A DNA stretch of 64,000 nucleotides, taken from positions 64,001 to 128,000 of the IMG/VR virus record IMGVR_UViG_3300023110_001773; one strand, written 5' to 3'. Shown piece by piece: positions 54,339 through 58,562 of this stretch; within the stretch, counting starts at the first letter, position 1, and each line of letters starts with the position of its first letter. This DNA is from a virus. Below the pieces are notes generated by a model. The model did no database searches. It saw nothing but the letters and a program-made list of their open reading frames with translations, and had not been told where the DNA came from. Made by a program: the position numbers and the translations under genes.

Positions 54339-54346
54339 TATTTATA
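54339..54346 (-). promoter_or_regulatory. T4 late promoter (g48 operon)
   Basis: Exact TATAAATA on the minus strand; a CTAAATA variant at about 54314-54320 faces g4. Confidence 0.7.
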
Positions 54347-54786
54347 TGCCTTATAGAAAAGATTTGCATCAAGGACGATTTATTCCTAAAAATCCTAAGA
54401 AATATCGTGGAAATTCTAACCAAATCATATATCGATCTGGATATGAGTTGAAATTCATGAATTGGTGTGACATGAATCCAGATGTTAAGTTCTGGTCTTC
54501 AGAATCAATAGTAATTCCCTACAAGTCTCCTTTAGATAAAAGAGTACACAGATACTTTGTTGACTTCTACGCCAACATCAAAGGAAAGTCATATCTAATA
54601 GAAATCAAACCCTCTAGATTTACAAGACCACCAGAACCAAGAAAGAGAACAAAAAAATATCTAGAAGAAGTGGCTCAATGGGGAGTCAATGAAGCCAAGT
54701 GGAAATCTGCAAAAGAATTTTGTCTTGATCGGGGGTGGGAATTTAAGATAATCACAGAAAAGGAGTTGGGAATCTCTTATAAATAG
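54346..54786 (+). CDS. g4: Head completion nuclease gp4
   Basis: G.F.PKNP.KY.G, IYRS..E.KFM.WCD, W.SE...IPY, HRYF.DF, IEIKP, NEAKW..A, IITE. Confidence 0.93.
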   Translation: MPYRKDLHQGRFIPKNPKKYRGNSNQIIYRSGYELKFMNWCDMNPDVKFWSSESIVIPYKSPLDKRVHRYFVDFYANIKGKSYLIEIKPSRFTRPPEPRKRTKKYLEEVAQWGVNEAKWKSAKEFCLDRGWEFKIITEKELGISYK

Positions 54787-54791
54787 TGTTC

Positions 54792-55361
54792 ATGGCAAAC
54801 CCATTTGAACAAATAAGAGCCAATTCTAACGATCAATCAAAATCGTATAATTGGTACATGAACCAAGTTAGGAACGTTGCGAGAGGAATTAATAATCCTA
54901 GTACAGCGATGTCTTCTAGCATTGCAAAAAGACAAGGGTCATATGACATCGGTTCTATGTATTTGTTTAGATATGATGCAAAACACAAAAGTAAGTTGCC
55001 ATACTTTGACGCATTTCCTCTGTGTCTACCATTTGAACCAACCAACGATGGTTTCTGGGGAATGAATTTACATTATCTACCATATCTTTTACGAGCAAAA
55101 CTGTTGGGCAAATTACTGGAAACCATGAACGATCAGAAACTCACATCACAGTCTCAGATGTCATACAATTGGGATTTGTTGAGTAGTGCGGCCAGATTTC
55201 CAGAAGTAAAACCCTGTGTAAAAAGATATCTGAATACTCAGATGCGTAGTTCTTTTTACAGGATCGATCCATTGGATTGGAAGGCTGCAATCTTTTTGCC
55301 AGTAGAAGATTTCAATACTAGTAAGAGCAAAGTATTTTCAGATTCTAGAGGAATAATGTAA
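54792..55361 (+). CDS. g2: DNA end protector gp2
   Basis: G.MY.F.YD.K.K..LPY.D.FPL, F.G.NLHYLP, PCVKRYL, W..A.FLP.E.F; TATAAATA at 54778-54785. Confidence 0.9.
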   Translation: MANPFEQIRANSNDQSKSYNWYMNQVRNVARGINNPSTAMSSSIAKRQGSYDIGSMYLFRYDAKHKSKLPYFDAFPLCLPFEPTNDGFWGMNLHYLPYLLRAKLLGKLLETMNDQKLTSQSQMSYNWDLLSSAARFPEVKPCVKRYLNTQMRSSFYRIDPLDWKAAIFLPVEDFNTSKSKVFSDSRGIM

Positions 55362-55957
55362 TGAGTCTTAGTAGATTCTTGGGTCACGTTCAAGGAAACG
55401 ACTTAGCAAGAGCAAACAGATTTGAAGTAGAAATTTATGGGCCTGGTAGCGGAAGGTTGCCATCACTATTATGTGAAGAAGCTCAGATACCAGGCTTGCA
55501 AGCACTGTGGTCTCCAACAAAAATAGGAATGTGGACTGAAAACAGAGTTCACGGCATGGAATTTTTTGGGGAATCAGCTGCATTCACTTTCTATTGCGAC
55601 ACGGACTGGAATGTAAGATCGTATTTTGAAAACTGGATGCAACAAGTAGCATCTTTTGAAACCAAAGAACCAAAATATCAAGACACCTATGTTGGGGAAG
55701 TTAAAGTAAAAGTACTCAACAGAAGAGACAGTGAAAGAAAATCTTGGACTATGAAAGAAGCCTTTCCAAGACTATTGAATATTATTCCAGTAGCTCAGGG
55801 TGGCGATGGCATTGTAAGAGTGACAGTAACGTTTGCATTTAGAAGTTGGGAAGCAGGCGGCGGTGGCGGTTCAAGTATTGCGGATATTTACGACACGATC
55901 ACTGGTGGTGGAAACGTGAGAGAGAAAATGAGAGATGTATTGGACAAAGTTTTTTAA
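55361..55957 (+). CDS. Tail tube-like baseplate initiator (gp54-like)
   Basis: LARANRFEV, LCE...IPG, F..W, L.EAFP, VTVTF.FR.W (gp19/gp54 fold). Confidence 0.75.
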   Translation: MSLSRFLGHVQGNDLARANRFEVEIYGPGSGRLPSLLCEEAQIPGLQALWSPTKIGMWTENRVHGMEFFGESAAFTFYCDTDWNVRSYFENWMQQVASFETKEPKYQDTYVGEVKVKVLNRRDSERKSWTMKEAFPRLLNIIPVAQGGDGIVRVTVTFAFRSWEAGGGGGSSIADIYDTITGGGNVREKMRDVLDKVF

Positions 55958-55977: not shown

Positions 55978-56673
55978 ATGGGATTACCTATTACAGAATA
56001 CCCGCTAGTTGAGGTTTATGTTTATTCAGAAAAAAAGAAGGTCAATTTCAGACCATTTTTAGTAAAAGAAGAAAAACTATTAGTATTTGCAGCTGAAACT
56101 GGTGAGGCCATGGAAATGATAAAGGCCTCCCAGCAGATTGTCACCAACTGTTCTTTTGGAAAAGTTAAGGGTGATGAGATACCAATTTTTGACATGCAAA
56201 ATATATTTCTTGAACTTAGAAAAGCTTCTATAGGAACAGATATTGAAGCGAGGTTTGGATGCGGTCATTGCGAAAAGAAAACCAATGTTACAATTGATTT
56301 AAACAGGTTTAAACTAAAAGAAAGTGAAGATCATTCTCCAATTGTAAAACTAACAGATGAAATGTCTGTCGAAATGAGGTATCCGAAATCGGAAGAACTC
56401 AAAGAGATTGCAGGCAAAGAATCCGATGCAGATATCTATGAAGTATCATCAAGGTGTATAGAGAAAATTTTTATTAAAGATGAAGTCTATGAAGAAATTA
56501 GTGACGGGGATAAAAGAGAATTCATTGACAACATGCCCCCAACACAGTTTCAAAGTATTAGACAATTCTTTGAGACAATGCCGGTATTAGAAAACAAAAT
56601 AGAATTTATTTGTAATGGTTGCGGTAGAGAAAATTATGCATTTATGAATGGGTACATGGATTTTTTCGTATAA
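55978..56673 (+). CDS. g26: Baseplate hub assembly protein gp26
   Basis: LP, FRPFLVKEEK.L, FD...IFL.LR..S.G, CxxC, MRYP, FFETMP.L, CxxC, ends DFFV. Confidence 0.9.
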   Translation: MGLPITEYPLVEVYVYSEKKKVNFRPFLVKEEKLLVFAAETGEAMEMIKASQQIVTNCSFGKVKGDEIPIFDMQNIFLELRKASIGTDIEARFGCGHCEKKTNVTIDLNRFKLKESEDHSPIVKLTDEMSVEMRYPKSEELKEIAGKESDADIYEVSSRCIEKIFIKDEVYEEISDGDKREFIDNMPPTQFQSIRQFFETMPVLENKIEFICNGCGRENYAFMNGYMDFFV

Positions 56674-56846
56674 ACCTCTTCCATGAAAATCTCGAAAACT
56701 ATTTCAAAACCAACTTTTTATTGATGCAAGAACATAAATATAGTTTAACAGAGATTGAGAATTGGATGCCTTGGGAGAGGACAGTTTACATTTCCATGCT
56801 AGTTCAACACTTAAAAAAGAAATCAGAAAAATCAAAGAGTCGATAA
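56661..56846 (+). CDS. g51: gp51-like baseplate assembly ORF in the -1 frame (probably expressed as a gp26-gp51 frameshift fusion; not in ORF track)
   Basis: The -1 frame reads FFRINLFHENLENYFKTNFLLMQEHKYSLTEIENWMPWERTVYISMLVQHL..., and KYSLTEIEN.MPWER is the gp51 signature. First ATG is only at 56724. Confidence 0.8.
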   Translation, partial: FFRINLFHENLENYFKTNFLLMQEHKYSLTEIENWMPWERTVYISMLVQHLKKKSEKSKSR

Positions 56847-58562
56847 ATGGCGCCATTTTTTACTAGTTTGTTGGGATTTGGGTCGAGAACAATCGGCGGC
56901 CTTGGCCGTGCAATAATGAATCCCATAAAGAAGGTTGGGGGTCTGTTAGGAAACGCTGGCAAGGCTGGTGCTTATTATGGACTAGGAAATGCACTTTTTG
57001 GTGGCAACAACAACGAAGAACAAATTCAATCCGGCGGTTCTGGTGGCGGTGAAATGGGTGGATTCGGTGGAACCGTATCCGGCGCAACACCAGTAAGTAC
57101 CGCAGCCTCTGCAACAAGTGCTTTGTCAGATGCAGATAGTTCTGATCCAGTCGTAAGACAATTACAGGACATCGAAAGAGTCTTAGTATCAATCAAAGGT
57201 GATACATCCCAATTTGTTGGGGGAATGTCAAGAGCCGCACAAGCTGGCCCAAATAAAAATGCGTTGAGAAATATGTTCGGCCGCAGTGGTGGTGGTATTG
57301 GCCCCGCAGCTGCTGGTGGACTTGGACTCGCTTCACTTTTTGCATTGGGTATGGCCGGCAAGATGGGAGACAATGACAAAGGTGATACCGAGGCAGGAAC
57401 TCAAGAAAGATTCGATGCCACCATAGGAAATGAATTAGAAGATTTCGGCGCCACCGCTGGGATGAAGGCGGCAGGAATAGCAGCTGGTGCAGCTGGAGAA
57501 AGAGCATCAAAGGCAGCTATAGAAGCAGGAGCAAACAGAGCAGGAAAAATGGCCGCCTCTACTATAGACACAAGTACTGGCGGGGTGAAATTTGATAGAA
57601 ATGGTACTGCAATTAATAAAGCTGGAGATGAAGTACATGGAGCAGCAAAAGAATCTGCAAGACAATCAATGGAAAAACTCCAGAAAGAAGCAGCAGAAGC
57701 AGCTTCAGAAACAGCTGCAAAAAATCCACAAATAGCAGCGAAGATAACAGCATCTATCGCCAAAAACCTTGGTCAAACTGGTGCGAAAGTTTTACCATTT
57801 GTAGGAGCAGGGTTTAACCTAATTTTTGCAATGGAAAAGGCTATAGCAGGGGATTGGAAAGGAGCTGCATTAGAAACTGCTGGTATGATTCCTTTTGCCG
57901 GAATAGGTGCTGACGTTGGTTCCTTGGTAAGAGATGTCTATAAAGACGTATATGATGTATTCCCAGAAGATGACTCAGAGAATTATGAGGAACGATTCCC
58001 AGAATTATTTAACATGGTTACTAGTGCTATTGCTGACTTGATGTCCTCTAACATGGATAATGCTGTAAATGATCTAGAAGCAGTAGAGGCTAGACCAGAA
58101 GTTTCAGATCGTATGACTGGTAGACGGCGAGGACGAGCTCTAGAGAGACAAAGATCATGGGACAACAAATATGGAAATACACACAATGCAGATGGTAGTG
58201 TAAAAGCAGAACTATTAGAAAGTGCGGTGGAAGCAAGAATAGATACCAATCCTGATCAAACTACTAGTATGATGGATGCAGCAATCGAAACTGGACAAGA
58301 AGCTCTTGGTGGATTGGGAGTTGATGTTCCCCTAAATGATTCTGCTAGAGTAGAGGATATGACTACATCAAGTTTTGAACAGACCAATGCATCATCTAAT
58401 GATGCTCTAGTAGCTGCTCTTGGTGGAATGCCTGGGGCAACAGCTCCAGTACAAGGCGGACAGGGAGAAATCTCTGTACATGTGTCTTCTCCAAAAACAA
58501 GTTTCCCACAGTCAAATTCTGAATTGACTTGGATAAACAGCAACGCATCTGGATTTGTTTAA
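56847..58562 (+). CDS. Putative tape measure / hub protein (gp29-like)
   Basis: 571 aa, Ala/Gly-rich helical; K.LPFVGA...A....GDW.GA.LE; follows g26/g51. Confidence 0.65.
   Translation: MAPFFTSLLGFGSRTIGGLGRAIMNPIKKVGGLLGNAGKAGAYYGLGNALFGGNNNEEQIQSGGSGGGEMGGFGGTVSGATPVSTAASATSALSDADSSDPVVRQLQDIERVLVSIKGDTSQFVGGMSRAAQAGPNKNALRNMFGRSGGGIGPAAAGGLGLASLFALGMAGKMGDNDKGDTEAGTQERFDATIGNELEDFGATAGMKAAGIAAGAAGERASKAAIEAGANRAGKMAASTIDTSTGGVKFDRNGTAINKAGDEVHGAAKESARQSMEKLQKEAAEAASETAAKNPQIAAKITASIAKNLGQTGAKVLPFVGAGFNLIFAMEKAIAGDWKGAALETAGMIPFAGIGADVGSLVRDVYKDVYDVFPEDDSENYEERFPELFNMVTSAIADLMSSNMDNAVNDLEAVEARPEVSDRMTGRRRGRALERQRSWDNKYGNTHNADGSVKAELLESAVEARIDTNPDQTTSMMDAAIETGQEALGGLGVDVPLNDSARVEDMTTSSFEQTNASSNDALVAALGGMPGATAPVQGGQGEISVHVSSPKTSFPQSNSELTWINSNASGFV

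Follow-up and report, generated by a model that had tools for sequence, protein, structure and literature searches.

Among long-tailed phages, the rule is that frameshifting in a single gene yields two tail chaperones, and the T4-like phages long seemed to be the exception. Does a T4-like gene 26 (g26) whose end carries a T run, with a gp51-like reading frame open behind it, encode one tail assembly chaperone (TAC) or two? The question arises at a locus in a 64,000-nt stretch of viral DNA (the window) from IMG/VR record IMGVR_UViG_3300023110_001773. The source is an uncultured marine T4-like phage, whose own genome record comprises 165,637 bp and is rated 100% complete.

The initial annotation of the window had proposed that gp26 and gp51 are fused by a programmed -1 frameshift. 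Our analysis supports this idea, which was already in print: judging by its title and by the papers that cite it, a study by Vladimirov, Gautam and Davidson (Virology 2022, 566:9-15) described the gp26/gp51 frameshift in T4-like phages and so closed the gap. It is cited in PMC10885494 and PMC12846349 as having identified gp26/gp51 as the T4-like tail assembly chaperones. A passage of the latter, the Pseudomonas phage Adele paper, describes poly-T stretches as -1 frameshift signals in the TAC-N genes of T4-like phages, while a passage of the former, the PRFect paper, describes some T4-like phages that have a short gene and a long fused gene in place of frameshifting. The window adds one clear example, from a further uncultured marine phage and with a minimal signal consisting of a bare heptamer.

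Gene 26 ends in a slippery heptamer and a gp51-like frame follows

The g26 product matches the Pfam family PF12322 (T4_baseplate) with 176.2 bits (cut-off 24.5) over profile positions 9-218 of 219, and phrog_150 ('baseplate hub') with E = 3.8e-55. A GGAG motif lies 5′ of its ATG. The 3′ end of the gene reads GAT TTT TTC GTA TAA and contains, exactly as the initial annotation had it, a T_TTT_TTC heptamer in the X_XXY_YYZ phase (Table 1). TTTTTTC occurs 28 times in the 64-kb window, which is 39% G+C, against 30 expected. The heptamer by itself is no rarer than chance; what makes it significant is where it lies, in which phase, and that relatives conserve it.

Table 1 Features of the gene 26 locus (window coordinates)
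Feature	Position	Strand	Remarks
Tail-tube-like gene (gp54/gp48/gp19 class)	55361..55957	+	phrog_45 'tail tube', E = 5.6e-30; directly upstream of g26
g26, short chaperone form (TAC-N)	55978..56673	+	231 aa, 26.8 kDa
Predicted transframe product gp26-51 (TAC-NC)	55978..56846	+	230 + 59 = 289 aa, 34.0 kDa
Slippery heptamer T_TTT_TTC	56661..56667	+	in X_XXY_YYZ phase
-1 frame extension, gp51 C-terminal module	56667..56846	+	59 codons + TAA; small helical domain
g26 stop TAA	56671..56673	+	one codon past the heptamer
571-aa Ala/Gly/Ser-rich ORF, probable tape measure	56847..58562	+	assigned by position after the chaperone gene and by size

The -1 frame is open from 56628 to the TAA at 56844-56846, and the ATG of a 571-aa ORF adjoins it at 56847; on both points, and in the -1 peptide it quoted, the initial annotation was right. 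Residues 2-58 of this 59-aa peptide match phrog_634 ('baseplate hub assembly catalyst') with E = 1.4e-24, and the peptide also matches the C-terminal end of phrog_150 (positions 236-281 of 282). The gp51-like sequence had been said to precede the first ATG, and it does: the first canonical starts in the -1 frame, TTG 56721 and ATG 56724, lie 18 codons into the gp51-like match. The nearest of them sits 48 nt past the g26 stop. The claim that ATG 56724 lacks a Shine-Dalgarno (SD) sequence also holds, since no purine-rich SD is present in the 25 nt 5′ of it, whereas g26 has its GGAG. The gp51-type tail can be reached from g26 by a -1 shift only. The predicted fusion junction reads ...YMDFF/RINLF.... 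An AlphaFold2 model of the -1 module (pLDDT 85.5) consists mainly of three helices; compared on its own with predicted viral structures, the C-terminal module gave no significant match. When the phage's own genome was searched with profiles, one PF12322 gene and one gp51 module were found, both at this locus. The genome therefore has neither a separate long-form gene nor a separate gene 51.

The T run and the -1 frame are conserved among relatives

Related loci were collected by a search with a three-sequence alignment; no loci were found when the window protein was used alone, and megablast of the locus against the phage collection gave no match. The relatives comprise ten isolate phages (tblastn hits) and 78 viral metagenome loci from IMG/VR in which the 3′ end of gene 26 is intact. 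We tabulated 84 distinct junction regions bearing a T run, drawn from IMG/VR contigs and from isolates that include cyanophages and Cronobacter, Aeromonas, Stenotrophomonas and Rhizobium phages.

The initial annotation had suggested looking for a conserved T run at a constant -1 phase to g51, and this is what the relatives have: NNT TTT TTN is kept, always in the same -1 phase, in 84/84 junctions. The codon preceding TTT is AGT, GAT, TCT, AAT or CAT. Its wobble base is T in all 84, even though the residue encoded may be Ser, Asn, Asp or His. The heptamer closes with C in 56 junctions, with T in 21, with A in 6 and with G in 1, and the run comprises six T in 63/84, seven in 7/84 and eight in 14/84. 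The gene 26 stop follows the heptamer by 0-3 codons, and by exactly one codon in 64/84. A -1 frame stop lies directly 5′ of the run in 10/84 junctions, which narrows the window for the shift to about 12 nt.

The -1 frame also carries a coding signature that starts from the heptamer. Over the 81 nt from the heptamer in 78 aligned sequences, the -1 frame has no stops, while the other two have 214 and 238. In the stretch from the gene 26 stop to the conserved Met, the entropy at -1 codon positions 1, 2 and 3 is 1.06, 0.83 and 1.55 bits, respectively, and it is at the third codon positions of the -1 frame that variability peaks, beginning at the heptamer. The slip site is likewise where the consensus -1 peptide begins (FFRIxLSHxSLxNYYxTNFxLMQHHKYSLTELENMxPWEREIY). 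Among the 84 junctions, the -1 ORF offers its first canonical start anywhere from +3 to +57 codons, and hence there is no conserved initiation site. Anatomy, conservation and homologies of the locus are thus established at the level of sequence.

Other layouts occur. The T run is missing from the Vibrio phages K476 and D531, whose module begins with an ATG that overlaps the stop of gene 26 (TAATG); Yut3 and P10VF have a T run plus TGATG. Given these arrangements, the gp51 module may sometimes work unfused. In K476 (locus L008, 2119-2303) and D531 (locus L009, 2095-2273) the large gene that follows encodes a gp5-like hub lysozyme instead of a tape measure.

T4 gp51 is an in-frame counterpart of the predicted fusion

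In T4, gp26 (208 aa) and gp51 (249 aa) are hub assembly chaperones (PMC3004832, Table 2). Residues 1-201 of T4 gp51 match PF12322 with E = 3.9e-52, and T4 gp26 matches this family too, so that T4 gp51 is a gp26 paralogue with a 48-residue tail. In alignment, T4 gp51 runs uninterrupted (DVFKLL) across the position of the DFF/RI junction of the window. The tail itself could be compared only through alignment and profile methods: a pairwise BLASTP comparison between the -1 peptide and T4 gp51 told nothing useful, whereas hhalign placed residues 2-47 of a 48-sequence -1 profile on residues 200-244 of T4 gp51 with E = 2.4e-5. By these sequence comparisons, T4 gp51 is the in-frame equivalent of the proposed fusion, and the window tail corresponds to the part of gp51 that gp26 lacks.

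The two phages thus share PF12322 chaperones and homologous tails, but differ in how the genes are laid out. Genes 26 and 51 of T4 are separate, divergently transcribed neighbours; its g26 carries TTC TTT and no slippery run; and genes 27 and 28 lie between its gene 51 and its tape measure gene 29. A T run at the end of gene 26 was found in 0/5 phages with a separate gene 51 (T4, RB16, 44RR2.8t.2, Acinetobacter phage Octan and KFS-EC). We considered whether the T run might be forced by the Phe-Phe motif, and rejected this: T4 gene 26 spells its Phe-Phe TTC TTT, and coding puts no constraint on the wobble T ahead of the run.

The long and short chaperone genes of phage RB16 (locus L091, 710-3287) are adjacent and co-directional, in the order 54, 51, 26, 25 on one strand, while the T4 pair is divergent.

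gp26 resembles solved tail assembly chaperones

The AlphaFold2 model of gp26 has a mean pLDDT of 91.7. Foldseek of the model against the PDB gave no match, nor did a sequence-profile search of solved structures with gp26. When residues 1-94 were compared with 48,161 chains by VIA-align, the top three were 3fgx (Z 7.5, 85 residues aligned), 2ob9 (Z 6.5, 84) and 3klu (Z 5.7, 85); the Z-scores are moderate, and the ranking is specific. 3fgx, 2ob9 (the HK97 tail assembly chaperone) and 3klu (YqbN) are the solved tail assembly chaperones (PMC9603447). The predicted N-domain of gp26 therefore folds like three solved TACs, HK97 gp13 (2OB9) among them. Together with the in-frame equivalence of T4 gp51, this supports the proposal that gp26 and gp26-51 are the TAC pair of this phage.

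The Cys residues of gp26 (95, 98, 212 and 215) form two distant CxxC pairs. The C-terminal half of the model gives weak matches to zinc ribbons, NrdR, ZPR1 and ZitP among them (Z 3.2-3.6), and the cyanophage homologues of Sf-FP1 and P-SSM4 keep only the first of the four Cys.

The gene upstream of g26 is tube-like. Besides its match to phrog_45, its product has weak Pfam matches below the cut-offs (Phage_TTP_2, E = 2.4e-4; Phage_T4_gp19, E = 0.009). The initial annotation had named the downstream gene as the tape measure. Position, size and composition fit: the 571-aa ORF is 37% A+G+S, its unnamed homologues are 544-640 aa long, and T4 gp29 has 590 aa. A family assignment did not follow, as neither the ORF nor 20 of its homologues has a Pfam match, BLASTP and hhalign found no similarity to T4 gp29, and PF25671 has no match in the phage genome. 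A weak language-model neighbour is the T4_Tape_measure cluster (score 0.86). From its position and size, the ORF is probably the tape measure protein.

Proposed mechanism and its signals

We consider it probable, on the comparisons above, that g26 is a tail assembly chaperone gene that yields gp26 and, by a -1 ribosomal slip, gp26-51. Most ribosomes would stop at the TAA at 56671-56673 and release the 231-aa gp26 (TAC-N). A minority would slip back by one base on U_UUU_UUC, with two tRNA-Phe re-pairing on UUU UUU, and would then read CGU AUA ... to the TAA at 56844-56846, giving the 289-aa gp26-51 (TAC-NC). By analogy with lambda G/GT and P2 E/E+E′, the common gp26 body would coat the tape measure protein of the next gene, and the rarer helical tail of 59 residues would link the coated tape measure complex to the tube or hub. 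It is the slip, its efficiency, its ribosomal nature and the binding partners that we infer.

The window differs from a stimulated -1 cassette of the dnaX/IS type, with neither the downstream structure nor the upstream SD-like element in place. The 70 nt downstream form no hairpin (MFE -2.0 kcal/mol, z +0.8), and no SD-like word occurs in the codons upstream (AAT GGG TAC ATG). This leaves the heptamer and the stop close behind it as the only signals, and we expect the slip in the window to be of low, lambda-like efficiency.

Some relatives have more. An SD-like GGAGG/GAGGG lies 8-10 nt 5′ of the heptamer in 47/84. The Glu at this site is encoded by GAG in 31/50 cases, compared with 27% elsewhere in the same genes (Fisher p = 5e-7, uncorrected for phylogeny), and GGA and GGG are also enriched at the Gly that follows. 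The pattern of codons indicates that the relatives' SD-like element is built by synonymous codon choice. As for structure downstream of the heptamer, RNAalifold found no consensus across the family, and a hairpin of 7 bp specified by hand was paired in only 48% of cells. Folding over all loci gave a mean z of -1.45, and some lineages have strong hairpins: in Synechococcus phage Sf-FP1 (locus L001, 3212-3282) one begins a few nt past the heptamer (70 nt, -22.4 kcal/mol, z -6.7), and other cyanophage lineages have similar hairpins in different registers.

Ribosome, polymerase or separate peptide

The conserved sequences place the putative shift within the T run, and conservation alone would fit either a ribosome or an RNA polymerase that slips there. 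If the polymerase added one U on the six T in some late transcripts, the same 289-aa gp26-51 would result. We regard this as rather unlikely, although several observations agree with it: the element kept in relatives is a 6-8 T homopolymer, the protein would be identical after insertion of one U, and the window has no ribosomal stimulators. Known slippage sites of bacterial polymerases need about 8-9 or more A or T, whereas 63/84 runs, and that of the window, have just six T, a length with which low-level slippage is still compatible. Productive polymerase slippage on six T would mean an unusually short site, clade-wide and hairpin-free, which we think unlikely. The run, moreover, always has the X_XXY_YYZ phase, with no NNV TTT TTT V among the 84 junctions; the SD-like element 8-10 nt upstream in relatives would matter to ribosomes but not to a polymerase; and P2 has the same in-phase T6 heptamer, annotated there as a site of translational frameshifting. 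Vladimirov et al. 2022, to judge by their title, leave room for a non-translational route. Taken together, the constant phase of the heptamer, the prevalence of six-T runs, the annotated P2 site and the SD-like element favour ribosomes.

A ribosomal slip must also be weighed against there being no fusion at all, with a small gp51 peptide made alone, either as 41 aa from TTG 56721 or ATG 56724 or by reinitiation past the g26 stop. Database annotation leans this way, as 12/12 single-gene isolate records annotate a small ORF or none and never a joined CDS, and so do K476 and D531, with an ATG in TAATG and no T run, and Yut3 and P10VF, with TGATG besides the run. In the window, however, 48 nt separate the stop from the nearest start, which lacks an SD. 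The 18 codons ahead of this start match gp51 profiles and show protein-level conservation in relatives, where start positions are scattered. A separate peptide would explain neither the invariant wobble T nor the loss of the run where g51 is separate. We therefore hold separate synthesis to be very unlikely; initiation at TTG/ATG 56721-56724, which had been named as a possible refutation of the fusion, is disfavoured by the conservation of the region upstream as protein. A mere coincidence in an AT-rich genome, with nothing expressed from the heptamer and its open -1 frame, would agree with the count of TTTTTTC (28 in the window, 30 expected), but is contradicted by conservation at 84/84 junctions, by the coding constraint on the -1 frame and by the homology of the tail to that of T4 gp51, and has a negligible chance of being right.

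Comparison with lambda and P2, and database annotation

The lambda G/GT system was reportedly described by Levin et al. in 1993 and by Xu, Hendrix and Duda in 2004. Lambda slips on G_GGA_AAG and has a non-contractile tail. To our knowledge, binding roles of the G and T parts have been shown for lambda only.

A further counterpart is P2 E/E+E′, with an annotated -1 translational frameshift on an in-phase GGT TTT TTG (NC_001895). P2 has a contractile tail, its run is followed within a few codons by the short-form stop, and its extension reaches to where the tape measure gene T starts. It differs from the window in that there is no detectable sequence similarity, in that gpE has 91 aa against the 231 aa of gp26, and in that gp26 has an extra C-terminal domain with four Cys.

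GenBank MT409116 (Acinetobacter phage Octan) labels gp26 and gp51 'tape measure protein assembly chaperone'. A joined 26-51 CDS is present in 0/12 of the single-gene isolate records examined, cyanophage RefSeq entries included; at the extension these annotate a "gp51" of 41-62 aa or nothing. A joined 26-51 coding sequence belongs in those places.

Other features near gene 26

Upstream of gp2, the ORF at 54346-54786 (146 aa) matches Pfam Tn7_TnsA-like_N with E = 1.6e-20, and occupies the place that cyanophage records give to the head completion protein gp4. The gp2-like gene, for a DNA end protector, starts with GTG at 54786; immediately 5′ of it, still within the end of the preceding gp4-like gene, lies TATAAATA (54778-54785), a perfect T4 late-promoter consensus. 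Within the gp51 module, CATAAATAT at 56733-56741, about 105 nt 5′ of the tape-measure-like ATG, agrees with the late-promoter box at 7/8 positions. A conserved His-Lys-Tyr is encoded there; ATAAATA is kept in 41/78 relatives, and this box is probably a by-product of coding.
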